A stretch of DNA of 64,000 nucleotides from Bacillota bacterium. Its GTDB lineage: Bacteria; Bacillota; JAAYKD01. A program made the translations under genes and the position numbers. Positions 29,728-42,036 of this stretch are shown here, piece after piece. Position 1 is the stretch's first letter, and each line of letters starts with the position of its first letter. The stretch spans positions 2,272,001 through 2,336,000 of the forward strand of contig OY762825.2 in NCBI GenBank assembly GCA_963666425.2, given 5' to 3'. Below the pieces are notes generated by a model. It was not told where the DNA came from, searched no databases, and saw only the letters and a program-made list of their open reading frames with translations.

Positions 29728-30690
29728 ATGCAAACAAATTATCTGGTGAGTTTTGTTTTCGCTGTGATTGTGGCCGGCACACCCTTGCTCTTCGCTACCC
29801 TGGGTGAGATCATTACGGAAAAAGTCGGCAACATGAACCTTGGCGTGGAGGGTATGATGTATATCGGCGCCGCGGCCAGCTTTGCTGCGGCCTATTATAC
29901 CGGCAGTGCCATTCTGTTTTTAGTGGCTGCGGTGGTGGCCGGCATCCTGGCCTCTTTGATTTATGCTTTGCTGACTGTCACCCTGAAGGCAAATCAATCG
30001 GTGACCGGTTTGGCTTTGACGATCTTCGGCACCGGCCTGGCGAACTTCGTGGGGGAGACCATCACTACCCGTTCCCCGACTCATACGGCAGTGTTGAATT
30101 CAGCGCTGGTCGATCGCTTTGATTCCATCTCAATTCCGGGTTTGAGCAACCTGCCGGTGATCGGCAAATTGCTTTTTTCGTATAACCCCTTTGTCTACTT
30201 TGCTATTCTTTGTGCTGTGATCGCAGGGCTTTTTCTTTATCGCAGCATTCGAGGCTTGAACCTCAGAGCGGTTGGGGAAAATACAGCCGCTGCCGACGCT
30301 TCCGGCATTAACGTCACGCTCTATAAATATCTCGGCATTGCTGCCGGCGGGGCTTTGAGCGGCATGGGCGGCGCTTACATTATTATGATTACCTGCGGTG
30401 GTACCTGGACGGCCAACTGTGTCAGTGGTTTGGGTTGGATTGCCGTAGCGCTGGTCATTTTTGCTGGTTGGAATCCTTATAAAGCCATTTTTGGCTCGGC
30501 GATTTTTGGCGCTTTACGCGTGCTGCGCTTCTATGTGCCGAAGAGCGTGATCAATATCCCCAATTCTTTTTATGCCATGCTGCCTTTTGTCGTCACGGCT
30601 TTGGTGATTATTTTTACCTCGATTCGCAACTCGCGCGAGATTCAGCAGCCTGCCGGCTGCGGAGTCAGCTATTACCGCGAGGAACGTTAG
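29728..30690 (+). CDS. Nucleoside-type ABC permease 2
   Basis: NLGVEGMM, RAVGENTAAADASGI, GWIAVALV. Confidence 0.9.
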   Translation: MQTNYLVSFVFAVIVAGTPLLFATLGEIITEKVGNMNLGVEGMMYIGAAASFAAAYYTGSAILFLVAAVVAGILASLIYALLTVTLKANQSVTGLALTIFGTGLANFVGETITTRSPTHTAVLNSALVDRFDSISIPGLSNLPVIGKLLFSYNPFVYFAILCAVIAGLFLYRSIRGLNLRAVGENTAAADASGINVTLYKYLGIAAGGALSGMGGAYIIMITCGGTWTANCVSGLGWIAVALVIFAGWNPYKAIFGSAIFGALRVLRFYVPKSVINIPNSFYAMLPFVVTALVIIFTSIRNSREIQQPAGCGVSYYREER

Positions 30691-30721
30691 CGCTGCTATG
30701 CTTTTTTATAGATTGAAAACC

Positions 30722-30758
30722 AAAAACAAGCTTCCGCTGATCTGGAAGCTTGTTTTTT
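30722..30758 (+). terminator. Intrinsic terminator
   Basis: AAAAACAAGCTTCC..GGAAGCTTGTTTTTT. Confidence 0.9.
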
Positions 30759-31056
30759 GAAACTCAAACTGCAAAGAGTAGCGCTATTTACTGAAAAAAT
30801 TAAATAATGACAGAAAATCTAGTTTATAAAAGGGTTGGCAAGATTTCAAATTCGCAGATTCCGGGTTATAATAGGAAAGGAATCTTCGTATCATAACAAG
30901 GTGTGGAAACGCTGAACGGCGAAAACAAGTTTCGCTGAACTGCAGCAAAGGCAATCATAAAAAGAAAACCCGCTGCATCGTTTGATTCACGGTTTTACTC
31001 CGTATTTACGGTAAAAATCGTAAAAAAGGACATGATCAAGAGAAAGAGGGCTAAAT

Positions 31057-31899
31057 ATGTTCGAAATTATCAGAAAAATCGAGTTGAACCCTACTGTTAC
31101 CCAACTGGATATCTATGCTCCGCTGGTCGCGAAAAAAGCAGAACCGGGACAGTTCATCATCCTGCGCGTGGATGCCGAAGGGGAAAGAATTCCTTTGACT
31201 GTAGCGGACTATGATCGCAGCAGCGGCAGCGTTTCCATCATCTTTCAAATTGTGGGTGCGACAACCGCCAAATTGAATCACCTCAAGGTGGGTGATTCCT
31301 TACAGGACTTTGTCGGTCCGCTCGGGAAACCAACCGAAACAGACGGATTAAAGAAAGTGGCTGTGGTCGGCGGCGGCGTTGGCTGCGCCATCGCCTATCC
31401 GATCGCCAAGAAACTGCATGAACTGGGTGCAGAAGTGCATACGATCGTCGGTTTTCGCAGCAAAGACCTGGTCATCCTGGAAGATCAATTCAAGTGTTCC
31501 TGCAGTTTATTGAAGATGATGACAGATGACGGCAGTTATGGTGAAAAAGGATTTGGCACCGATGCCTTGAAAGCCCTGATTGAGAGCGGCGAGCAATATG
31601 ATGAAGTGATTGCCATCGGACCTTTGATGATGATGAAATTCGTCTGTAAGCTGACGAAAATCTATGGGATTAAAACCATTGTCAGTATGAATCCGATCAT
31701 GATCGACGGTACCGGTATGTGCGGCTGCTGCCGATTGACGGTGGGCGGCAAAACCAAATTTGCCTGCGTGGACGGACCGGATTTTGACGGGCATCAGGTT
31801 GATTTTGACGAAGTCATCGCGCGCGCCTCGATGTATCAGGCGTTTGAGCGAACAGCTTTCGAGCATACCTGCAATCTCTTTCAATTGGAGGTAGAATAA
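31057..31899 (+). CDS. nfnA: NfnA, electron-bifurcating transhydrogenase small subunit
   Basis: PGQFIIL, GERIPLT, GGGVG, DGTGMCGCCR...FACVDGPDFD 2Fe-2S motif; adjacent to a GltD-like gene. Confidence 0.85.
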   Translation: MFEIIRKIELNPTVTQLDIYAPLVAKKAEPGQFIILRVDAEGERIPLTVADYDRSSGSVSIIFQIVGATTAKLNHLKVGDSLQDFVGPLGKPTETDGLKKVAVVGGGVGCAIAYPIAKKLHELGAEVHTIVGFRSKDLVILEDQFKCSCSLLKMMTDDGSYGEKGFGTDALKALIESGEQYDEVIAIGPLMMMKFVCKLTKIYGIKTIVSMNPIMIDGTGMCGCCRLTVGGKTKFACVDGPDFDGHQVDFDEVIARASMYQAFERTAFEHTCNLFQLEVE

Positions 31900-31900
31900 A

Positions 31901-33292
31901 TTGACGAATTTATCTTTAAAGAAAAATCCAATGCCTGCGCAAGACCCAAACGTCCGAAATAAGAATTTTTTGGAAGTCACCCTCGGCTATACGGCAGAGC
32001 AGGCGCTCGATGAAGCCAAACGCTGCCTGAACTGCAAAAACAAACCTTGCGTCAATGGCTGCCCGGTCAGCATCAATATTCCCGCTTTCATCAAAGAAGT
32101 GGAAGCAGGTCATTTTGCAGCTGCCTACGATGTGATCAATCAAGCCAGTTCCTTGCCGGCGGTTTGCGGCCGGGTCTGTCCGCAGGAAAGTCAATGCGAA
32201 AAATATTGCGTCAGAGGGATCAAAGGCGAACCGGTAGGGATCGGCCGTCTGGAGCGCTTTGTCGCCGACTGCTATCAGGCCGAAGCCAGTGGAAAAATTG
32301 AAAAGCCAGTGGCCAACGGGCACAAAGTTGCTGTGATCGGTTCCGGACCTTCCGGTCTTACCTGCGCCGGTGACTTGGCTAAAATCGGCTATGCTGTCAC
32401 CATCTTTGAAGCGCTGCATGTGGCCGGAGGTGTGCTGGTTTACGGAATTCCGGAATTCCGTCTGCCCAAGGCGATTGTGCAAAAGGAAATTGATGGCTTG
32501 AAAGCATTGGGTGTAAAAGTCGAGACAAACGTGGTGATTGGCAAAACCATAACGGTTGACGAATTGCTGGATGCCTATGGCTTTGAAGCCGTCTTTATCG
32601 GATCCGGTGCCGGTTTACCGAATTTCATGAATATTCCGGGTGAGAACCTCAAAGGAGTCTATTCTGCCAATGAATTTCTGACTCGCATCAACCTGATGAA
32701 GGCTTATCAGCCCAACAGCAGCACCCCGATCCAAAAAGGCAAAAACGTCATCGTGGTCGGCGGCGGTAATGTTGCCATGGATTCTGCCCGCTGCGCCAAA
32801 CGGCTGGGTGCCAATGTCACCATTGTTTATCGCAGAACAGAAAATGAATTGCCGGCCCGGCGTGAGGAAGTGGAACACGCCATCGAGGAAGGAATCCAAT
32901 TTAAATTTCTGCATAGCCCGCTGGAGATTTACAGCGATGAAAACGGCTTTGTCAATGGCGCTCTTTGCCAGGAGATGGTGCTGAGTGAACCGGATGCCTC
33001 CGGCCGAGCGAGACCGATTCCGCTGCAGGGCAGTGAATTTAGAATGGACTGCGATACCGTGATCATGGCCATTGGCACCTCTCCCAATCCATTGATTAAG
33101 TCCACTACGGAAGGTTTGCAGACCAATAAATACGGCTGCATTGTGGCCGACCAAAGCGGATTAACCTCTCGACCGGGTGTTTTTGCCGGCGGGGATGCGG
33201 TGACCGGCGCAGCGACGGTCATCTTAGCGATGGGTGCCGGCAAAATTGCGGCAGAAGCGATGCATCAATTTATCCAAGGTAAAAATCAGTAA
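31901..33292 (+). CDS. nfnB: NfnB, GltD-like large subunit
   Basis: EAKRCLNC..PCVNGCP, CGRVCPQESQCEKYC, GSGPSG, GGGNVAMD, GDAVTG; no gltB nearby. Confidence 0.85.
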   Translation: MTNLSLKKNPMPAQDPNVRNKNFLEVTLGYTAEQALDEAKRCLNCKNKPCVNGCPVSINIPAFIKEVEAGHFAAAYDVINQASSLPAVCGRVCPQESQCEKYCVRGIKGEPVGIGRLERFVADCYQAEASGKIEKPVANGHKVAVIGSGPSGLTCAGDLAKIGYAVTIFEALHVAGGVLVYGIPEFRLPKAIVQKEIDGLKALGVKVETNVVIGKTITVDELLDAYGFEAVFIGSGAGLPNFMNIPGENLKGVYSANEFLTRINLMKAYQPNSSTPIQKGKNVIVVGGGNVAMDSARCAKRLGANVTIVYRRTENELPARREEVEHAIEEGIQFKFLHSPLEIYSDENGFVNGALCQEMVLSEPDASGRARPIPLQGSEFRMDCDTVIMAIGTSPNPLIKSTTEGLQTNKYGCIVADQSGLTSRPGVFAGGDAVTGAATVILAMGAGKIAAEAMHQFIQGKNQ

Positions 33293-33411
33293 CCGATATC
33301 ATTGCAAAACGCAGCCGAGCCTTTGTTTAATAAGCACGGAACTGTCTCGTTCGGGAGTCAGGGCCGTGCTTTTCCGCAGAAAAAATCGAAAAGCGGCGTA
33401 CTGTGATTTTA

Positions 33412-33440
33412 TTGACAGGCAGAACAGTCAATGATACTAT
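33412..33440 (+). promoter_or_regulatory. Sigma-A promoter of the dlt-like operon
   Basis: TTGACA-17-TACTAT with extended TG. Confidence 0.65.
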
Positions 33441-33574
33441 AGTAAGAATAAGAAACGTGTGTCAAATGAAGGTCAACACTCGAAAAAAGTGATGACTGCA
33501 TGAGATTTACGGTGAATTTCTAAGCAATAAAGCCAAACGAATCAGCACTGCATCCAAGCAGTGGGGAGACAACA

Positions 33575-35089
33575 ATGACAAAGAGTGTTCTGGAGTATTT
33601 AGAGCGTTCGGCAGCACGGTTTCCGGATAAAACGGCATTTGAAGATGAAACATCTTCTTGCACCTACGGGGAACTATGGCAGCGTGCGCAAAGAATCGGC
33701 AGCGTTTTGGCGAATAAAATTCCTGCCGGCTCTCCGATTCCTGTTTTCATGGAAAAAAGCGTGACAGCGGTAACCCTGTTCATGGGTATTCTGTCAGCCG
33801 GTTGTTTTTATGTCATGTTGGATGTGAAACAGCCGGTCACCCGCTTGAATCAGATTGTCAAAACGCTGGAAGCGTCTGTCATCATTACTGACCGGACCAA
33901 TCAAAACGCCTTGGCCTGTTTGGATTTTACGGGAGAAATCCTTGCTTTCGAAGATCTGATGCCGGAGCAGCCGGATGAAATGCTCTTGGCGGCGCGAAGA
34001 GAACAGGCACTGGACATCGATCCGCTCTACGGCATTTTTACTTCCGGATCCACCGGTGTGCCCAAGTGTGTGGTGATCAGCCATCGTTCCGTCATCGATT
34101 TTATGGATTATTTTCCCGATCTGTTTCAGATCTCAGAGCAAGATGTCATTGGCAATCAAGCGCCGTTTGATTTTGATGTGTCGGTCAAGGATATTTACAC
34201 CACGCTCAAAACCGGAGCCACTATGGTGATCATTCCGCGCCGCATGTTTTCCATGCCGATGCAGCTGCTCGATTACCTGGCGGACAGAAAAGTGACGACG
34301 CTGATTTGGGCTGTGTCTGCTTTGTGTATCCTGACCACCCTGAATGCCTTTGAGTATAAGATTCCTCGTGATATCAAGAAAATTTTGTTCAGCGGCGAGG
34401 TGATGCCGATCAAGCATCTGAATAAATGGCGAGTGGTCTACCCCAAAGCACTGTTTGTCAATCTCTATGGTCCCACCGAGATCACCTGCAACTGCACCTA
34501 TTACATCGTCGACCGAGAATTTCAGCCGGGGGAAGTTCTGCCCATGGGCAAAGCGTTTCCCAATGAAAAGGTCATGCTTTTGGACGAAAACAACCGCCTG
34601 ATCACAGCGCCAAAACAAGAGGGTGAGCTCTGCGTTTCCGGAACCGCTCTGGCTTTGGGTTATTACAACAATCGGGAGCAAACCGAAAATGCTTTTGTGC
34701 AAAATCCGTTGAATCCACATTTTCTGGAACTGATTTACCGCACGGGCGATCTGGCTTATTATAATGAGCGCGGTGAATTCTGTTTTGCTTCAAGAAAGGA
34801 TTTTCAGATCAAACACATGGGGCAGCGGATTGAGTTGGGTGAAATCGAGACTTGTCTGGATCGAATCCCGGAAATCAAACGAGCCTGCTGCATCTTTGAC
34901 GCAGAGACAAATAAGATTGTCGCTTTCTATGAAGGCGATATTACCAAAGGTTTGATCATTCGGCAGCTGAAAATTGATTTACCCGTTTATATGCTGCCCA
35001 ATACCCTTCTGCGCGTGGAAGCCATGCCAATCAGTAAGAACGGAAAAATCGACCGGGTGGCTTTGAAAAATCTTCTGAAAAGGAGCTAA
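33575..35089 (+). CDS. Stand-alone amino-acid adenylation enzyme (DltA-like)
   Basis: FTSGSTGVPK, FDFDVSVKD, FSGE, NLYGPTE, YRTGD, QIKHMGQRIELGEIE, NGKIDR. Confidence 0.9.
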   Translation: MTKSVLEYLERSAARFPDKTAFEDETSSCTYGELWQRAQRIGSVLANKIPAGSPIPVFMEKSVTAVTLFMGILSAGCFYVMLDVKQPVTRLNQIVKTLEASVIITDRTNQNALACLDFTGEILAFEDLMPEQPDEMLLAARREQALDIDPLYGIFTSGSTGVPKCVVISHRSVIDFMDYFPDLFQISEQDVIGNQAPFDFDVSVKDIYTTLKTGATMVIIPRRMFSMPMQLLDYLADRKVTTLIWAVSALCILTTLNAFEYKIPRDIKKILFSGEVMPIKHLNKWRVVYPKALFVNLYGPTEITCNCTYYIVDREFQPGEVLPMGKAFPNEKVMLLDENNRLITAPKQEGELCVSGTALALGYYNNREQTENAFVQNPLNPHFLELIYRTGDLAYYNERGEFCFASRKDFQIKHMGQRIELGEIETCLDRIPEIKRACCIFDAETNKIVAFYEGDITKGLIIRQLKIDLPVYMLPNTLLRVEAMPISKNGKIDRVALKNLLKRS

Positions 35090-35091
35090 AA

Positions 35092-36267
35092 ATGGAACGC
35101 AGCGTGTTAGCGCGGATTGCGCAGGAATTTCCGACACCGGCTTATGTTTTTGAATTGGATGAATTAACGGCAAGACTGACCATGATCCGTGAACAATTAG
35201 GCGATGCGGCCGGGCTTTGCTTTGCAATGAAAGCCAATCCTTTTTTAGTCGATCATCTGAACGGCTTAGTGGACCGCTTTGAAGTTTGTTCTCCGGGTGA
35301 ATTTGCCATCTGCGAGCGAAACCAGATCCCGGCGGCGCGGATCGTCTTATCCGGTGTGAATAAAGAGCGGACGGAAATGGAACGCGTACTTCGCTGTTAT
35401 GACACAGCGGTGACTTTCACGGCCGAATCAGAGCAACAGCTGCAAATGTTGGCCAGCTGTGCCGAGGAACAGCAGAAAACAATCAAAATCATCCTGCGTT
35501 TGACCAGCGGCAATCAATTCGGGATGGATGAGGCAACCATCTGCCGGATTTTATCCCGCTGGCAGGAGTATCCCAACCTGCAGCTGATGGGTTTGCAGTA
35601 TTATTCCGGTACGCAGAAAAAAAAGATCTCGCTGATCGCCAAAGAACTGCACTATTTGGATGAATTTTGTATCCAACTGCAGAATTCATACCAAATTACC
35701 TTTCCGAACCTGGAATACGGCCCAGGTCTTTATACCCCTTATTTTGCCCAGGATGAAGCCGTGGATGACAGTGAGCTGCTGGCGGCTCTCGGCGATTTAC
35801 TGCGCAACATGCGTTTTGGCGGCAAGATCATGCTGGAGATGGGACGTTACCTGACGGCGCTCTGTGGTTACTATCTCACGTCCGTCGTTGATTGTAAGCG
35901 GAATCAGGATCAGAATTATTGCATCATCGATGGCGGCATCAATCACATTAATTATTATGGGCAAACAATGGCCATGAAAATGCCGCCGATCCTGCATCTG
36001 GCACAGCAGGACCGCGGACAGATAGAGAACTGGCATGTCTGCGGTTCCTTATGCACTGCCGGCGATGTCATTGTCAAGCAACTCCCCTTACGGCAGCTCA
36101 TGGTGGGGGATGTCTTGGTTTTTGGCAAATTAGGCGCATATTCGATCACGGAAGGCATCTACCTTTTCTTGAGCAGAGATCTTCCCGGCGTTTTGTTTTA
36201 TAATCAGGCCGAGGGGATTCGGCTGGTTCGCTCGAGTCTTGCTACTCACCCATTCAATTCGATTTAA
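35092..36267 (+). CDS. PLP-dependent fold-III decarboxylase (DAP-decarboxylase/BtrK/VinO-like)
   Basis: TPAYVF, FAMKANP (PLP lysine), EVCSPGE, EMGRY, GSLCTAGD, GAY. Confidence 0.85.
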   Translation: MERSVLARIAQEFPTPAYVFELDELTARLTMIREQLGDAAGLCFAMKANPFLVDHLNGLVDRFEVCSPGEFAICERNQIPAARIVLSGVNKERTEMERVLRCYDTAVTFTAESEQQLQMLASCAEEQQKTIKIILRLTSGNQFGMDEATICRILSRWQEYPNLQLMGLQYYSGTQKKKISLIAKELHYLDEFCIQLQNSYQITFPNLEYGPGLYTPYFAQDEAVDDSELLAALGDLLRNMRFGGKIMLEMGRYLTALCGYYLTSVVDCKRNQDQNYCIIDGGINHINYYGQTMAMKMPPILHLAQQDRGQIENWHVCGSLCTAGDVIVKQLPLRQLMVGDVLVFGKLGAYSITEGIYLFLSRDLPGVLFYNQAEGIRLVRSSLATHPFNSI

Positions 36268-36282
36268 GAGAGGAGAACCAAT

Positions 36283-36525
36283 ATGGAAAACTCAGAAGGA
36301 ATTAAAAAGATCATTGCGATTCTGGAGGACATCAATCCGGATGTGGATTATACAACTTGTACTAAGCTAATTGACAGTCAGATTCTCGATTCTTTCGCTA
36401 TTCTTTCGATTGTCGCCGAACTGCAGGAAGAATTTGATGTCTATGTGACGCCGATGGATATAAAACCGGCGAATTTCAACTCAGCCCAAGCTCTATGGGC
36501 TATGGTAGAGCGTCTGAGGGCGTAG
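36283..36525 (+). CDS. Acyl/aminoacyl carrier protein (DltC-like)
   Basis: Acidic 80-aa protein; ILDSF phosphopantetheine site; ANFNS. Confidence 0.9.
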   Translation: MENSEGIKKIIAILEDINPDVDYTTCTKLIDSQILDSFAILSIVAELQEEFDVYVTPMDIKPANFNSAQALWAMVERLRA

Positions 36526-36558
36526 TGTCTTGAGTAACGCTTCTAGATCTGGAGGCAA

Positions 36559-38103
36559 ATGATGTCGTTAGTTTCTTTGAAATTTGCACTCTTTCTGTTG
36601 GTTGCGGTCATTGGTTATTACCGTATACCAAAAAAATGGCAATGGATATGGCTGTTGGCCTTCAGTTACGTTTATTATGCGTCTGCCGGTCTGAAGATCG
36701 TACCTTTTTTGCTTTTTTCTACCGGCGTATCCTATCTGGCAGGCCGAATGCTGGACCAAATCAAAAACAGCCAAACCGAAAAAACTCTGAAACAGAAAAG
36801 GAAACGCTTTGTCTTATTGCTGACGCTGCTCCTGGATTTCGGCATGCTTGTGGTCATTAAATATACGAATTTCGCTTTAATCAACATGAATCGTCTGCTG
36901 GATCTGCACCTTTCCCTGCAGACTTTTCTGTTGCCGCTGGGTATCTCGTTTTATACCTTCCAATCGGCAGGTTATATCATCGATGTCTATTGGGAGAAAT
37001 ACGAAGCCGAAAGGAATCCCTTTCGGTTTGCTTTGTTTGTTTCCTTTTTCCCGCAGATTCTGCAGGGCCCCATCGGCCGTTTCGACCGGCTGGCGCGTCA
37101 GCTCTATGAAGAGCATGAGTTTAATTGGCCGCGCATGGAACGCTCCCTGCAGTTGATTCTCTGGGGATTCTTTAAAAAAATGGTGATCGCCGATAATGCA
37201 GCCCGCGTGGTTGGTGAGGTTTTCTGGGGCAACAATTATCAAAAATATACCGGCACCACGATTTTGGTGGCAGTCTTGGGCTATTCCATTCAGCTCTACG
37301 GAGATTTTTCGGGCGGTATGGATGTCGTCAAAGGGGCTGCCAATCTGTTTGGCATTGAGTTGGACGAGAATTTTAAACGGCCTTTTTTTGCAGTTTCCAT
37401 TGCGGATTTTTGGCATCGCTGGCATATTACGCTGGGCACCTGGATGAAGGATTATGTCTTTTATCCCTTATCGCTATCCAAAACGATGAATCGCTTTGGC
37501 AAATCTGCCCGAAAACTTCTGGGCAAAAACATGGGGCGCGCTTTGCCGATTTGCGTGGTGAATATCATTGTATTTTTCATCGTTGGTGCTTGGCACGGCG
37601 CGAATTGGAAATATATCGCTTATGGTTTGTATAACGGACTGATCATCGGCTTCAGCGGCTTGATGATGCCGACCGCCAGGAAATGGAAAATCGCTTGTCA
37701 TATCAATGATAAATCAACAGCCTGGCGCATCTTTCAGATTTTCCGAACTTTTATCCTAGTCAATATCAGCTGGTATTTTGACCGGGCCGATAATCTGACG
37801 CATGCCTTCGCGCTGATGCAGAAAACGGTGACCGATTTTCACTTTTCTGATTTCTTGGACGGCACGCTGATGTTGAAAGGGGTAAGCCAGATAGGGCTGC
37901 ACCTTTACAACATCGTCTTGCTTGGTTGTGTCGTGCTATTTATTGTCAGTTATTATCAGGAAAAAGGTGTTCGGATCGGCGAAGTGCTGCGCGCCAAACC
38001 GGTTGCTTTGCGCTTTGTCGTCTATCTGCTGCTTCTTTATGCTTTGCCGGCATTCGGAACACTGTCGTCATCCGGAGGAGGCTTTATCTATGCGCAATTC
38101 TAA
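36559..38103 (+). CDS. MBOAT O-acyltransferase (DltB/AlgI-like)
   Basis: LPLGISFYTFQ, FFPQILQGPI, DFSGGMD, FWHRWHITL, GAWHGA, C-terminal FIYAQF. Confidence 0.93.
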   Translation: MMSLVSLKFALFLLVAVIGYYRIPKKWQWIWLLAFSYVYYASAGLKIVPFLLFSTGVSYLAGRMLDQIKNSQTEKTLKQKRKRFVLLLTLLLDFGMLVVIKYTNFALINMNRLLDLHLSLQTFLLPLGISFYTFQSAGYIIDVYWEKYEAERNPFRFALFVSFFPQILQGPIGRFDRLARQLYEEHEFNWPRMERSLQLILWGFFKKMVIADNAARVVGEVFWGNNYQKYTGTTILVAVLGYSIQLYGDFSGGMDVVKGAANLFGIELDENFKRPFFAVSIADFWHRWHITLGTWMKDYVFYPLSLSKTMNRFGKSARKLLGKNMGRALPICVVNIIVFFIVGAWHGANWKYIAYGLYNGLIIGFSGLMMPTARKWKIACHINDKSTAWRIFQIFRTFILVNISWYFDRADNLTHAFALMQKTVTDFHFSDFLDGTLMLKGVSQIGLHLYNIVLLGCVVLFIVSYYQEKGVRIGEVLRAKPVALRFVVYLLLLYALPAFGTLSSSGGGFIYAQF

Positions 38104-39052
38104 AAGGGTCATCCTCTTTGCGGCATTTTTCACGGTCTGTCTGCTGCTTAACGTCATTTTGAATTATATTTTGATTCCGAATAATATCATGAGAATCAAG
38201 CTGCATAACCTGGAAACAACGACCTATGATGACTTATTCCTTGGTACGTCGCATGGCTTTTCGGCTGTGGATCCTCTGGTTGTAGACAGCATTACAGGGC
38301 GGAAAAGTACCAATCTCTGTATCTGGGGAGAGTATCCCAGAGATTCTTATTACCTTCTGAAAGAGGCATGCAGAGAGCACAAACCGGAACGCGTAGTTTA
38401 TGAGCTGGATCCCACTTATTGGATCAATAAGGATATTGATACCTATTATTATACGCAATTGTTTAATTATATGCCTTGGTCTCAGGTCAAGGCAGAGTAC
38501 TTCTTGGCGAAAATTACCTCGGCGGATTTTAGAGCTGTTTTATTCCCCTGGTTTAATTATCAATTGCAGTGGCAGCCGAATCTGGCCAATCTGGAATTAA
38601 AACAAACGGACAATTATAAAAACTACGGCCTTGATACATTTGATCTTTCCTATCAAACTTTGAAAGAAGAAGGATTCTTATTTTTCAAAGATACCAAGCG
38701 GACAAAGTCTCAATATGTCTCTCTTTGGGATGAAAAGAAAATGCTGGTGAATTCGTATCGGTATTTTGATAAAATGGTGACCTTCTGCCGGGAAAACGAC
38801 ATTGAACTGGTGGTTTTTACCACGCCCGTGCCACAGGAGACATTGGAGCTTTATCCGGAAAACTACCAAAAAGCATTCCAGTATTTTTCGAAAATGCTGC
38901 AAGGCTACGGTCTTACCTATTATAATTTCAATTACATCCAATTGGATGGTTTTGATAAGAGTCTTGTCGGTTATTCCGATTATGATGGACACATGTATGG
39001 TGATACTGCCGGTTCCTTCAGCAAATCCCTGGGAGACTATCTGAAAAAATAA
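38090..39052 (+). CDS. Membrane-anchored SGNH-like transferase (DltD/AlgJ-like)
   Basis: N-terminal TM; LFLGTSH nucleophile block; C-terminal DYDGHM; overlaps the MBOAT stop. Confidence 0.7.
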   Translation: MRNSKRVILFAAFFTVCLLLNVILNYILIPNNIMRIKLHNLETTTYDDLFLGTSHGFSAVDPLVVDSITGRKSTNLCIWGEYPRDSYYLLKEACREHKPERVVYELDPTYWINKDIDTYYYTQLFNYMPWSQVKAEYFLAKITSADFRAVLFPWFNYQLQWQPNLANLELKQTDNYKNYGLDTFDLSYQTLKEEGFLFFKDTKRTKSQYVSLWDEKKMLVNSYRYFDKMVTFCRENDIELVVFTTPVPQETLELYPENYQKAFQYFSKMLQGYGLTYYNFNYIQLDGFDKSLVGYSDYDGHMYGDTAGSFSKSLGDYLKK

Positions 39053-39078
39053 AGTCGGGCGAATCAATAAAAAGGTAT

Positions 39079-39117
39079 AAAAAAAAGCAGGCACTGTCAG
39101 GTGCCTGTTTTTTTTTA
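39079..39117. terminator. Bidirectional terminator
   Basis: A-tract-GCAGGCAC..GTGCCTG-T-tract. Confidence 0.85.
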
Positions 39118-39183
39118 TCGGAACTGTTTGCCTGCTTTCAGCCTTGTTTGGCTGCAAAATCCATTTGAGGCGGCAAGGAATCA

Positions 39184-39330
39184 TTAAATGACTCTTTTGC
39201 CCTGCACTAAACGGATGATCACCAAAACCACGGCGATGACTAAGAGAATGTGCAAAAGGCCTCCGCCCGTAGTAGTAACCAATCCAAGTAACCATAAAAC
39301 AATCAGGACGACTGCAATCGTGTATAACAT
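39184..39330 (-). CDS. Lmo0937-family small membrane protein, 48 aa (not in the ORF track)
   Basis: MLYTIAVVLIVLWLLGLVTTTGGGLLHILLVIAVVLVIIRLVQGKRVI; AAGGAG RBS. Confidence 0.85.
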   Translation of the reverse strand: MLYTIAVVLIVLWLLGLVTTTGGGLLHILLVIAVVLVIIRLVQGKRVI

Positions 39331-39384
39331 AATGCACTCCTTCTTCTTATGAGAATCATTTCTTTGCTTTTTCGATTCGATTTA

Positions 39385-39801
39385 CTAATCGGATAAGGTC
39401 TTCTTGACAGGGTAATCGACTGATTGATCCGCAGGATCAATCGGCGTGTATTCGACCCATTCCGGACGGACCCTTCTGGGCCTAACCAGTCCCAGGAGAA
39501 TCAGGCCAATGACACCGGTAACCAGCATCGCGATGAGGGTAGCGGGTTCCAAAAGCGGCAAGGCATCGATGGTGGTCAGGCTTACCGGAAAGATCCCATC
39601 AAAGATACCAACAATGTATTGCGTGACAGTGTAAATTCCTTTGACAAAAACATTGGTCGGATCCGCTCCCAGTAATTTGAAAAACAAGCGAAACGCCAGG
39701 GTGCATTCGAGCAAAGCTGTTAAGGCTCCGAACAGACGATATAAGAAAACATTTCCATCCACCGTTGTTTGCAGATCAGTTGAGTTAGTCTTTCTTTCCA
39801 T
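39385..39801 (-). CDS. YggT-like membrane protein
   Basis: LAFRLFFKLLGADPTNVFVKGIYTVT...FDGIF...EPATLIAM. Confidence 0.75.
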   Translation of the reverse strand: MERKTNSTDLQTTVDGNVFLYRLFGALTALLECTLAFRLFFKLLGADPTNVFVKGIYTVTQYIVGIFDGIFPVSLTTIDALPLLEPATLIAMLVTGVIGLILLGLVRPRRVRPEWVEYTPIDPADQSVDYPVKKTLSD

Positions 39802-39922
39802 TTTTAATTCCTTCCTTTTTTTTAACACTTGTTATTACAATTCCGCAGAAGACGGACCGTTTTTGGCGATTTTCCAACAATAACAGGTAGAAGAGGAAGT
39901 GACATGTCTTTTCCATATCCGT

Positions 39923-39951
39923 ATCATAACATAGTTATGATTAAATGTCAA
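39923..39951 (-). promoter_or_regulatory. Promoter with overlapping palindrome
   Basis: Minus strand TTGACA-17-TATGAT; ATCATAAC-ATA-GTTATGAT perfect inverted repeat over the -10 and spacer. Confidence 0.6.
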
Positions 39952-40109
39952 CATAATATAATAATTATTATTAATATAATAATACGAATTATCGGATGAA
40001 TAAAATAGCGCCTAATTTTACGTCTGTTCCGCATGACTTTTTAGCGGCAATTTAGGCGGGGAAATTTCCAGAGCAAGAAGAAAACATCAAAAAAAAAATC
40101 AGTAAATAG

Positions 40110-40162
40110 ATTGACAAAGTTCAATATGATGGTTATACTCAATATATAGATAAAGTTCAATA
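40110..40162 (+). promoter_or_regulatory. ars operon promoter with two putative ArsR operators
   Basis: TTGACA-17-TATACT; ATTGA-CAAAGT-TCAAT over the -35 and ATAGA-TAAAGT-TCAAT downstream of the -10. Confidence 0.7.
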
Positions 40163-40186
40163 AGTATAGATCGGGGGACTGTTAAG

Positions 40187-40513
40187 ATGAAATATTCCTA
40201 TGCAGAATTTGTGCCGGTGTTTAAGGCACTGGCTGACGAAACCAGGTTGAAAATATTGGAAATGCTGTCGTGCGGAGAAATGTGCGCCTGTGCAATTTTG
40301 GAGAGCTTTCGCATCAGCCAGCCAACGCTTTCTTATCATATGAAAATATTGATGGAGTGCGGTTTGGTGGATGGCCAGAAGGACGGCATTTGGATGCGCT
40401 ATACCTTAAATCAAACGCGTTTTCAGGAATTGCGGGAATTCTGTCATTTATTCTGTGGGGATCATGAGGACTGTATTTGTCATCACCCCAAGGCAGACGA
40501 GTGCTGCAAATAA
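40187..40513 (+). CDS. arsR: ArsR/SmtB family regulator 1
   Basis: FKALADETRLKIL, CGEMCAC, SQPTLSYHMK, Cys/His-rich tail. Confidence 0.9.
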   Translation: MKYSYAEFVPVFKALADETRLKILEMLSCGEMCACAILESFRISQPTLSYHMKILMECGLVDGQKDGIWMRYTLNQTRFQELREFCHLFCGDHEDCICHHPKADECCK

Positions 40514-40530
40514 CAAGGGAGGAGATTGGA

Positions 40531-41319
40531 ATGAAAGACAAAGAAGTAGTGCGGGAATCAATCAGAAAAAGATACGGCAGCATTGCGAAGAATAAACCTG
40601 CGGCTGGCTGCTGCAGCAGCGGCTGCGACTGCAATGGTGCCCCGATGGGTAGGACAGAGGCGTCCTTGCGCTTAGGTTATTCCGAAGAAGATTTGAAGAG
40701 TGTGCCGCTGGATGCCAATCTCGGGCTGGGCTGCGGCAATCCGCTGGCCATCGCCGCATTGAAATCAGGCGAAACGGTGCTCGACTTAGGCAGCGGCGGC
40801 GGTTTCGATTGCTTTTTAGCACGCCGACGGGTTGGCGAGCAAGGTTTCGTCATCGGCGTCGATATGACGCCTGCGATGATCAAACTGGCGCGCAAGAATC
40901 TGCAAAAGAGCGGGTATACCAATGTTGAATTTCGCTTAGGGGAAATTGAGCATTTGCCGGTGGCTGACGCGACGGTCGATCTGATTATTTCCAATTGTGT
41001 GATCAATTTATCCGTAGAAAAAGAACAAGTGTTCAAAGAAGCCTATCGGGTCTTAAAAAAAGGCGGCAGATTATCCATTTCCGATTCGGTTGCTACGGCA
41101 GAATTACCGCAAGAAGCGAAACAGAGTTTAGCCAAAATTATTGGCTGCATTGCCGGTGCTGAGTATATTGAAACCTTGAAAAGCATGATGCAAAGGGCGG
41201 GCTTTACAGACCTGGTATTCACGCCAAGAGACAACAGCAAAGAAATCATCGCTACTTGGATCCCGGGCAGCAAAATCGAAGATTATGTTGCTTCCTATCT
41301 GATTGAAGCAGTCAAATAG
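40531..41319 (+). CDS. arsM: Arsenite S-adenosylmethionine methyltransferase
   Basis: N-terminal GCC, GLGCGNP, LDLGSGGGFD, GVDMT, ISNCVINL, GCIAGA. Confidence 0.93.
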   Translation: MKDKEVVRESIRKRYGSIAKNKPAAGCCSSGCDCNGAPMGRTEASLRLGYSEEDLKSVPLDANLGLGCGNPLAIAALKSGETVLDLGSGGGFDCFLARRRVGEQGFVIGVDMTPAMIKLARKNLQKSGYTNVEFRLGEIEHLPVADATVDLIISNCVINLSVEKEQVFKEAYRVLKKGGRLSISDSVATAELPQEAKQSLAKIIGCIAGAEYIETLKSMMQRAGFTDLVFTPRDNSKEIIATWIPGSKIEDYVASYLIEAVK

Positions 41320-41355
41320 GATTTTCGGCGAAATATCGACAGAGGGAGAAAGGGG

Positions 41356-41643
41356 ATGCAAGCGATGGAAAAAGAATATGCCTTGCTGTTTAAAGCGTTG
41401 GCTGATCAAACCAGACTAGAGATTGTTGACCTGATTTCCTGTGGCGAGTTATGTGCCTGTGAAATTCTGAAGTCGTTTTCCTTCAGCCAATCCACCCTAT
41501 CCTACCATATGAAGCTTTTGACAGACAGTGGTTTGGTCAACGTGCGGCGCGACGGCAAAAAGATGATGTATTGCATCGACCCGGAAAAAGCGCTTGTTCT
41601 GATCGATTTTTGGGAAAATTTTGAAATTAAAGCAGAAAATTAG
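41356..41643 (+). CDS. ArsR/SmtB family regulator 2
   Basis: FKALADQTRLEIV, CGELCAC, SQSTLSYHMK. Confidence 0.88.
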   Translation: MQAMEKEYALLFKALADQTRLEIVDLISCGELCACEILKSFSFSQSTLSYHMKLLTDSGLVNVRRDGKKMMYCIDPEKALVLIDFWENFEIKAEN

Positions 41644-41658
41644 TAACGGAGGATCATT

Positions 41659-42036
41659 ATGGAAAAAGAACGCTATGGTTTTATTATGTGCGTCTGCACA
41701 GGCAAGTGTCCCGGTTTTCGTGCTATGGATATCTGGGATTTTATCAATCAGGTACGGGTGGAATTGCCGGTTGAATATGCTTTTATTCATCCGCAGCTTT
41801 GCGAAGAGGATGGCGATCGCTTTTTAGCCGATTTTCTGCAAGCCAAGCGTAAGGTTGTGATTGCGGCCTGCGCACCCAATATGCAAAAGAAAATGTTCAA
41901 ACAAGCCTTCCTGCAAGCCGGGATGAATATGGAGACGGATTGTGTGATGCTGGATATCCGCGATATGACGAACGACAAAGCTTTTCAAAAGGTGAAAGAT
42001 GCCTTGAGCCAGCTTGGATTTGAGGAGGATCTGTAA
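41659..42036 (+). CDS. Small Cys-rich protein resembling the HdrA N-terminal Fe-S domain
   Basis: CVCTGKCP, HPQLC, VVIAACAP, LDIR. Confidence 0.65.
   Translation: MEKERYGFIMCVCTGKCPGFRAMDIWDFINQVRVELPVEYAFIHPQLCEEDGDRFLADFLQAKRKVVIAACAPNMQKKMFKQAFLQAGMNMETDCVMLDIRDMTNDKAFQKVKDALSQLGFEEDL

Follow-up and report, generated by a model that had tools for sequence, protein, structure and literature searches.

A Dlt-like operon with an inserted BtrK-like PLP decarboxylase in a Bacillota bacterium: a candidate system for ω-aminoacylation of the cell envelope

A five-gene operon and its products

In a 64,000-nucleotide (nt) stretch of the genome of a Bacillota bacterium (contig OY762825.2, positions 2,272,001 to 2,336,000; the whole stretch is referred to below as the window), five genes lie tightly packed on the + strand at positions 33575–39052. 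These open reading frames (ORFs) encode an adenylation enzyme, a fold-III pyridoxal 5′-phosphate (PLP) decarboxylase, a carrier protein, an MBOAT (membrane-bound O-acyltransferase) and an SGNH protein. The set resembles the Dlt system of D-alanylation with a decarboxylase gene inserted, and the comparisons presented here point to an operon in which Dlt-type export may be joined to decarboxylation of a carrier-bound amino acid. The genes and their flanking signals are the following.

33412–33440, + strand: promoter-like site, hexamers TTGACA and TACTAT spaced by 17 nt, a TG preceding the latter, ~135 nt 5′ of the first ATG
33575–35089, + strand: stand-alone amino-acid adenylation enzyme, 504 amino acids (aa); DltA-like framework, changed pocket, invariant Lys205
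35092–36267, + strand: fold-III PLP decarboxylase, BtrK-like, 391 aa; PLP lysine Lys47
36283–36525, + strand: aminoacyl carrier protein, stand-alone, 80 aa; Ser37 of LDS as the phosphopantetheine serine
36559–38103, + strand: MBOAT, 514 aa; DltB-like core, both His motifs, C-terminal FIYAQF (codons 38083–38100)
38090–39052, + strand: membrane-anchored SGNH, DltD-like protein, 320 aa; candidate nucleophile Ser54 (GTSHG), invariant Asp297 and His301
39088–39117, + strand: hairpin (39088–39107; CAGGCAC / GTGCCTG, 6-nt loop) followed by a run of nine T

Successive genes are separated by 2, 15, 33 and −14 nt, and a Shine–Dalgarno-like GGAG precedes each of the five ATG codons. For the fifth gene, the start is most likely ATG 38090 (320 aa) and not TTG 37922, since homologues begin there and the 320-aa product is the protein called in a public collection. 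The promoter-like site matches 10 of 12 consensus positions; it is a consensus match only, the region holding 16 such sites where 10.8 are expected. The hairpin reads as a terminator both ways, being listed on the − strand by the motif scan and followed by its nine T on the + strand. An Rfam search of positions 30000–42000 (E ≤0.1) found no riboswitch or leader, just terminator-like Thr-leader matches below gathering. An earlier, sequence-only reading of this DNA had described a five-gene operon with its own promoter and terminator, a description borne out by the ORFs, their packing and these signals. Its domain calls (an A domain, a fold-III PLP enzyme, an acyl carrier protein (ACP), an MBOAT and an SGNH protein with a transmembrane anchor) also hold, four of them through Pfam and NCBIfam and the fifth through its fold.

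The decarboxylase is the component that has no counterpart in Dlt. It matches the Pfam families Orn_Arg_deC_N (PF02784) and Orn_DAP_Arg_deC (PF00278) of fold-III PLP enzymes, and its best solved relative is BtrK, with an E-value of 6e-34 over residues 4–366, as against 5e-24 for the best diaminopimelate decarboxylase; the solved structures compared include none of VinO. The BtrK structure (PDB 7ru7) was named by its depositors L-glutamyl-[BtrI acyl-carrier protein] decarboxylase; the ‘btrK’ of PMC8336468 is the name of a histidine-kinase gene, and was discarded as a false lead. In 81 family sequences, Lys47, Gly210 and Gly212, the EMGR motif (Glu249-x-Gly251-Arg252), Cys321 (in GSLCT) and Asp325 are all invariant, while Gly348-Ala349-Tyr350 is kept in 80 of the 81, the one other row being gapped. 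The His of CHIGSQ in the diaminopimelate decarboxylase 2p3e is replaced by Tyr or Phe in this family, and by Tyr in BtrK. Of the NCBIfam models, TIGR03099 is the top match, at 173.7 bits against a cut-off of 478.45. Prediction of a complex between the decarboxylase dimer and the carrier gave run scores of 0.43, 0.01 and 0.10, with a median under the 0.32 mark, and was used for neither view of whether the two proteins act together.

The adenylation enzyme belongs to the AMP-binding family of Pfam and scores above the cut-off of the NCBIfam model TIGR01733 (339 bits), and lies under the cut-offs of both DltA models (283.4 bits vs 559.85 for TIGR01734, and 295 vs 476); a genome-wide search gave it 282 bits on the DltA model. 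Module 2 of LgrA is its closest solved relative (E = 3e-100), with DltA chains at ~2e-54. What distinguishes the family is the amino-acid pocket, which was compared with that of four DltA sequences exceeding the NCBIfam cut-off and of two others that narrowly miss it. These six DltA-type sequences read FDLSV[M/L/T] and F[C/V]GE, whereas the window’s enzyme and all 80 of its homologues read FDVSVK and FSGE. The full string FDVSVKD is invariant in the 80, as are FSGE and GPTEITCNC, bar one T/S change. Position by position, the pocket is D-V-K-I-L-S-L-C-N-K in the family and D-L-[M/L/T]-T-L-[C/V]-[T/L/G]-V-A-K in DltA, with five pocket positions differing, including Met to Lys and Cys to Ser. The lysine in place of the DltA methionine, from which the sequence-only reading had taken its hint of an acidic substrate, is thereby confirmed as a fixed feature, and is accompanied by a serine where DltA has cysteine. 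Around the pocket, a DltA-like framework is kept (QAPF-FD-SV-D-Y, LF[S/C]GE). Lys at this position occurs in Glu-activating domains of nonribosomal peptide synthetases (NRPSs), and a basic residue here would fit an acidic substrate, and would suit lysine or ornithine poorly.

The carrier is a weak match to PP-binding (17 bits), and reaches 33.6 bits on the DltC model against a cut-off of 68. Its best solved relatives are stand-alone carriers of the PigG type (5e-6), with DltC at 3e-3, and Ser37 of its LDS motif is invariant across carrier homologues.

DltB proteins are the sole solved sequence relatives of the MBOAT (1e-24), whose FWHRWH and AWHG motifs align to FWNRWH and FWHG of DltB. It is 29% identical to a canonical 388-aa DltB over 291 residues, and gives 163 bits on the DltB model TIGR04091, for which the cut-off is 375. 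Beyond this core, the hydropathy profile reveals two added hydrophobic segments (residues 441–467 and 479–505), after which the protein ends in FIYAQF. A tail of the form x-[IVM]-Y-x-x-F is found in 71 of 72 homologues, the sole exception being cut by a contig end; the variants are LIYAGF (41 sequences, 40 loci), FIYAQF (20 sequences including the window’s own, 19 loci) and others (10 sequences). In PMC12148441, FXYXXF is given as the acyl-shuttle motif of DltX and PatA, and other bacterial MBOATs of MBOAT–SGNH pairs are described as bearing it on two added C-terminal helices; PatA/PatB-type pairs are said there to use acyl-CoA and to ‘lack a similar carrier protein’. No DltX-like ORF (≥20 aa) lies upstream of the operon. 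In a canonical dlt locus of the same phylum, taken as a control, DltX ends in FIYNEF, the 388-aa DltB is without a tail, and DltD has GSSE. Because the terminal FIYAQF conforms to the FxYxxF motif and follows two extra hydrophobic segments, the DltX function appears to be fused into the MBOAT here, although a carrier protein is present. As judged from sequence, the fused tail known from acetyl-CoA-type MBOATs is here combined with an MBOAT core like that of DltB and with a carrier protein. The identification of the MBOAT in the sequence-only reading stands, but the tail at its C-terminus had been missed.

Two more MBOAT genes are present in the same genome, at C1:1943425-1944876 (−) and C1:2172897-2174309 (+). 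FIYFRF is the C-terminal hexapeptide of the first product (483 aa) and FLYFRF that of the second (470 aa). Each gene is followed by one for a ~395-aa partner, neither has a gene for a ligase or a carrier in its vicinity, and both resemble ordinary pairs of the acetyl-CoA type.

The fifth protein matches no Pfam or NCBIfam family, and its public counterpart is named ‘hypothetical protein’. Among 34 aligned homologues searched with Pfam, none matches PF04914 (DltD), and seven match Lipase_GDSL_2 weakly. Its AlphaFold model, built on the 34-sequence alignment, has a pLDDT of 90.7, and the top Foldseek matches in the PDB are DltD structures (3bma, 6pfx, 7dxm and 6o93), at E ~5e-5 and TM-scores of 0.46–0.51. 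With VIA-align, DltD aligns to the model at Z 12.9–13.3 over 237–244 residues, PatB at Z 11.1–11.6, and SGNH proteins overall at Z 11–13.4; the Atlas clusters that match the protein are named SGNH/GDSL. Gly52, Ser54, Asp297 and His301 are invariant in the 34 sequences, with the nucleophile motif reading GTSHG in the window’s subfamily and GDSE in the other. The protein has one N-terminal hydrophobic helix, and its catalytic domain is predicted to lie outside the membrane. The predicted fold, together with the placement of the gene, makes this a DltD-like protein outside the DltD sequence family. The earlier description of a membrane-anchored SGNH protein is therefore upheld by the fold, the invariant Ser/Asp/His and the helix, whereas DltD membership at the sequence level is not, PF04914 being absent.

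Conservation, gene order and genomic context

Using the decarboxylase as query against one-genome-per-species contigs, 320 of 375 candidate stretches were found to encode a relative, and 80 loci were kept; the five proteins of the window then served as tblastn queries to score gene presence at each. All 80 have the adenylation gene next to that of the decarboxylase, 75 gave a match to the carrier and 72 to the MBOAT, and six of the eight loci with no MBOAT match have a nearby contig end. A homologue of the fifth gene was detected in 45 loci by tblastn, and in 15 more by clustering of the flanking ORFs. Two gene orders occur, adenylation–decarboxylase–carrier–MBOAT–(SGNH) in 60 loci and MBOAT–(SGNH)–adenylation–decarboxylase–carrier in 12, so the set moves as two blocks that stay together. 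Conservation of the five-gene order had been suggested as a check on the sequence-only reading, and the order is indeed kept across loci of many genera, more than chance would give.

The hosts belong to Lachnospiraceae (Lacrimispora, Hungatella, Enterocloster, Blautia, Dorea, Anaerocolumna, Roseburia and others), and further include Clostridium, Oscillospiraceae, Erysipelotrichaceae (Erysipelothrix) and metagenome-assembled genomes (MAGs) labelled Paenibacillaceae. Within the window’s own phylum, the decarboxylase family is patchy and rare, with 4 of 401 genomes (E ≤1e-60, own genome included) and 3 of 41 relatives possessing it.

A two-component system lies upstream, on the same strand, at about half of the related operons, a feature that the sequence-only reading had missed. 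In 35 of the 41 LIYAGF-type sequences (40 loci), a gene for a HAMP histidine kinase ends 0–240 nt before the first operon gene, at a distance of ≤30 nt from the adenylation gene in 29 of these 35, and is itself preceded by a gene for an OmpR-type regulator (e.g. L032:2162-4199; loci within L009–L076). At L076 the first operon gene after the kinase is that of the MBOAT. The two-component neighbour is confined to the LIYAGF subfamily, the window’s FIYAQF subfamily being without it. This kinase/regulator pattern is typical of envelope-stress control, and the linkage suggests inducible envelope remodelling in many carriers of the operon.

When the ORFs flanking the 80 loci were clustered and the top clusters annotated, no conserved condensation, thioesterase or ketosynthase gene was found, nor any conserved polymer-synthesis gene beside the operon. 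In 25 related loci (e.g. L043:11005-12225, −), the opposite strand bears a downstream gene for a class I/II aminotransferase; Asp or Glu might be provided by this enzyme, but the arrangement is more likely to reflect synteny inherited among close genera.

The genome that contains the window is 98.5% complete and has no match to LpxC or Omp85. A diderm host had come into consideration through the label ‘Negativicutes bacterium’ on a near-identical MAG protein, and was rejected on the absence of these two markers, the host being treated as monoderm. A second DltA-like adenylation gene is present in this genome at C1:508292-509817 (−), split by an in-frame TAA into 291 and 185 aa. Its neighbours, by eye, resemble genes for a ketosynthase III, two short-chain dehydrogenases and an acyltransferase, and the locus probably represents what is left of a small cluster for a lipid or metabolite.

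Within the window, the genes around the operon were assigned by eye only. Directly upstream, at 31057–33292, are a PyrK-type ferredoxin-reductase subunit-like ORF (280 aa) and a GltD-like NADPH-dependent oxidoreductase ORF (463 aa), with a hairpin and T-run at ~33333–33380 between this pair and the operon. Downstream, at 40187–41643, two ArsR-type helix-turn-helix-like ORFs (40187–40513 and 41356–41643) stand either side of an S-adenosylmethionine-dependent methyltransferase-like ORF (40477–41319), a unit resembling one for arsenic or metalloid methylation.

A proposed route to the envelope and its rivals

Fold-III PLP decarboxylases remove the carboxyl group on the amine-bearing carbon, and a thioester substrate must therefore be tethered via its side-chain carboxyl. 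The product of the route that begins with FlvN is β-alanyl. Side-chain tethering followed by decarboxylation is known for 3-methyl-Asp-VinL with VinO, and FlvN is an Asp-selective ligase of the same class (PMC11284099); glutamyl-BtrI with BtrK follows the same tethering logic, as the title of PDB 7ru7 indicates.

Set beside these systems, the operon may be read as a pathway in which carrier-bound Asp (Glu being less likely) becomes a β-alanyl (or 4-aminobutyryl) thioester, whose acyl group is relayed to an envelope acceptor by the tyrosine of the MBOAT and then the serine of the SGNH protein. We consider this a moderately probable course of events. The adenylation enzyme would activate an acidic amino acid through its side-chain carboxyl, most likely L- or D-Asp and less so Glu, and load it on to Ser37 of the carrier. 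The BtrK-like decarboxylase would then strip the free α-carboxyl while the substrate is on the carrier, giving β-alanyl-S-carrier (or 4-aminobutyryl-S-carrier). At the cytoplasmic face, the DltB-like MBOAT would take the group from the carrier and deliver it to the tyrosine of its own FIYAQF outside the membrane, from which it would move to Ser54 of the membrane-anchored DltD-like SGNH protein. The latter would esterify an envelope acceptor, likely a glycopolymer or glycolipid. These transfers via tyrosine and serine follow the Dlt/PatAB model as presented in PMC12148441. The net result would be positive surface charge, as in D-alanylation, and the lability of the ester should be lower than that of an α-aminoacyl one.

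Three products had been put forward in the sequence-only reading: β-alanyl, aminoisobutyryl and 4-aminobutyryl. A 4-aminobutyryl thioester is prone to lactam formation, from which it is protected in the butirosin pathway by an extra enzyme step. Because of this cyclisation, and because the operon encodes no protecting-group enzyme, we favour Asp and β-alanyl among the three. The wider proposal of that reading, Dlt-type export joined to on-carrier decarboxylation of the BtrK/VinO type, is supported in part: its anatomy and logic fit the closeness to BtrK, the position of the decarboxylase gene, the pocket lysine and the presence of LysA elsewhere in the genome, with the substrate, the activated carboxyl, on-carrier decarboxylation, the direction of transfer, the acceptor and the physiological role inferred from these.

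Several observations weigh against this route. The pocket positions follow the GrsA convention, with 235, 236 and 239 securely assigned and the remaining positions less so. The adenylation enzyme does not appear to be specifically related to the β-amino-acid enzymes VinN and HitB: HitB-type chains match it at E 1e-49, weaker than DltA (2e-54) and LgrA (3e-100), and VinN is not among the best 60 of its 77 solved-structure matches. VinN presumably binds the extra carboxylate via pocket positions 330/331, which are Cys and Asn here, so that a contact from Lys205 is a guess. As regards the fifth protein, other SGNH hydrolases tie with DltD in Z, aligning over 160–199 residues, and hhalign finds no sequence-level relation between its family and canonical DltD (probability 1%). 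The own genome has no LtaS-type (PF00884) gene and one TagF-like gene only, which suggests that the classical Dlt acceptor is probably missing. The NCBI pipeline gives the name ‘alanine racemase’ to a public protein that shares at least 90% identity with the decarboxylase. Finally, at two loci (L044 and L080) the adenylation and decarboxylase genes, with the carrier gene too at L080, have no MBOAT gene detected with the window’s protein within 5–6 kb either side; a different partner may serve the upstream module at these loci.

An alternative that we regard as unlikely is that the decarboxylase acts on a free metabolite, independently of the carrier, for example converting meso-diaminopimelate to lysine, while the exported group is an ordinary α-aminoacyl. 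The enzyme does have the fold of Orn/DAP/Arg decarboxylases, scores 171.8 bits on the lysA model (TIGR01048), and has diaminopimelate decarboxylases as its next-best solved relatives. The lysA score is, however, below the cut-off of 297.9, while a true LysA is encoded elsewhere in the own genome (475 bits vs a cut-off of 298); the match to BtrK surpasses that to any diaminopimelate decarboxylase by ten orders of magnitude, and the Glu of CETGD in 2p3e is absent from the window’s enzyme, which reads CTAGD. The pocket, in which one Lys is invariant and none of the assigned positions is acidic, has the wrong charge for lysine or ornithine, and the decarboxylase gene is consistently flanked by those of the adenylation enzyme and the carrier.

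A similarly low probability is given to a scheme that retains on-carrier decarboxylation, but in which the MBOAT–SGNH pair acylates a membrane lipid or a secreted small molecule, to form an aminolipid or a natural product. The lack of a conserved polymer-synthesis gene beside the operon and of an LtaS-type gene in the genome is consistent with such an acceptor, as are the solved relatives of the upstream proteins, the adenylation enzyme being nearest to NRPS modules and the carrier to PigG-type carriers. Set against this, the bacterial MBOAT–SGNH pairs with a tyrosine-shuttle tail that are described in PMC12148441 acylate extracytoplasmic polymers; the fifth protein has a membrane anchor and a catalytic domain predicted to face outwards; and the flanks of the 80 loci hold no conserved condensation, thioesterase or ketosynthase gene.

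Less probable again is a divergent D-alanylation system, in which alanine would be the amino acid loaded, and its D-form would come from the PLP enzyme acting as a racemase or epimerase, free or on the carrier. The DltA-like framework of the adenylation enzyme would accord with this, as would the name given to the near-identical public protein, a score of 42.9 bits on the Pfam family Ala_racemase_N, and the lack of a DltA above cut-off in the genomes that carry the operon (0/1 for the own genome, 0/5 for the others). Against it, the alr model gives 15 bits where the decarboxylase models give 172–174; the C-terminal sheet domain of the decarboxylases is present, and the motifs EMGR, the Cys of GSLCT and GAY are invariant; and the five altered pocket positions are unlike DltA. 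Canonical DltA is moreover rare in the phylum, exceeding the cut-off in 4 of 151 genomes, so its absence from the carriers says little. The idea that the operon replaces dlt was set aside on the same count: the carriers are without DltA (0/6), but most genomes of the phylum are likewise, which makes for a weak inference.

Least probable of all is envelope lysylation, in which diaminopimelate would be loaded by one end and decarboxylated at the other to give lysyl-S-carrier; the enzyme does come from the diaminopimelate decarboxylase family, the pocket Lys could bind the distal carboxylate, and a lysyl group adds two positive charges, but the pocket has no acidic residue for the distal amine, the CETGD Glu of 2p3e is lost, and the detour is hard to justify when lysine itself is available.

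Returning to the route through carrier-bound aspartate, its physiological reach can be sketched more tentatively. D-alanylation is the textbook means by which Gram-positive bacteria tune their surface charge and resist cationic peptides. The operon may represent a new surface-charge modification of monoderm Clostridia-type bacteria, in which β-alanyl (or other ω-aminoacyl) esters made by decarboxylation of carrier-bound Asp are placed on a glycopolymer or glycolipid of the envelope. The MBOAT exporting the group would be the first known to be fed by a carrier while having a tyrosine shuttle of its own. In Lacrimispora, Hungatella, Anaerocolumna and their relatives, the modification would be switched on by the dedicated two-component system, probably as a defence against cationic antimicrobials, and its ester would be chemically more stable than the D-alanyl one. 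As a whole, we hold this picture to be plausible, though somewhat short of an even chance. If true, gut and environmental genera would possess a second chemistry for surface charge, in a lineage where canonical DltA is rare, and base-labile β-alanine or γ-aminobutyric acid (GABA) would be predicted in envelope fractions.

Comparison with known systems

The operon combines known modules, namely Dlt export, on-carrier PLP decarboxylation and a fused tyrosine shuttle, in an arrangement for which no published description was found. Our literature search, outside which most subscription papers fell, returned no Dlt-like operon with a decarboxylase, and no description of β-alanyl esters on teichoic acids.

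The closest overall likeness is to Dlt itself, in which DltX, DltA, DltB, DltC and DltD carry out D-alanylation of teichoic acids. Shared with it are the stand-alone adenylation enzyme, the small carrier, the DltB-like MBOAT with its His motifs, the FxYxxF tyrosine shuttle, the membrane-anchored SGNH protein of predicted DltD fold, the compact operon and, in many relatives, two-component control. Unlike Dlt, the operon has a PLP decarboxylase gene inserted between those of the ligase and the carrier, its proteins fall under the cut-offs of all four NCBIfam Dlt models, and the pocket has Lys for Met. There is also no DltX microprotein, the shuttle being fused to the MBOAT, the fifth protein is unrelated to DltD by sequence, and no LtaS-type gene accompanies the system in the genome.

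In the structure of its MBOAT, the operon is nearer to PatA/PatB, AlgI/AlgJ/AlgX and WssH, for which PMC12148441 describes an MBOAT with two added C-terminal helices ending in FxYxxF and a separate SGNH partner. The fifth protein has what is seen in PatA/PatB-type SGNH partners, in that it is predicted to adopt the SGNH fold and has an invariant Ser/Asp/His and an N-terminal helix. The operon differs from this type in encoding a ligase and a carrier beside the MBOAT (72 of 80 loci), which argues for a carrier-bound donor, and in an MBOAT core that is closest to DltB.

A further parallel is the trio of exosortase-A (PEP-CTERM) loci, comprising the TIGR03098 ligase, the TIGR03099 PLP decarboxylase and a carrier, itself uncharacterised, in which a ligase and a decarboxylase are likewise tied to surface-polysaccharide loci. 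That trio is proteobacterial, and has hydrolase partners and no known MBOAT. The window’s proteins lie well outside its families, with scores of 186.5 against a cut-off of 592.35 (TIGR03098) and 173.7 against 478.45 (TIGR03099).

The upstream half of the operon corresponds to BtrI/BtrJ/BtrK, VinN/VinL/VinO and FlvN/L/O, which similarly combine a ligase, a stand-alone carrier and a fold-III PLP decarboxylase, BtrK being the best solved relative of the window’s enzyme. In the making of the Vin and Flv macrolactam starter units, the ligase loads 3-methyl-Asp (Vin) or Asp (FlvN) on to the stand-alone carrier (PMC11284099). Those systems feed aminoglycoside or polyketide assembly and include a protecting-group step, whereas here the decarboxylase is accompanied by an MBOAT–SGNH pair and no protecting enzyme. 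The operon would constitute a four-protein system for on-carrier PLP decarboxylation beyond antibiotic pathways.

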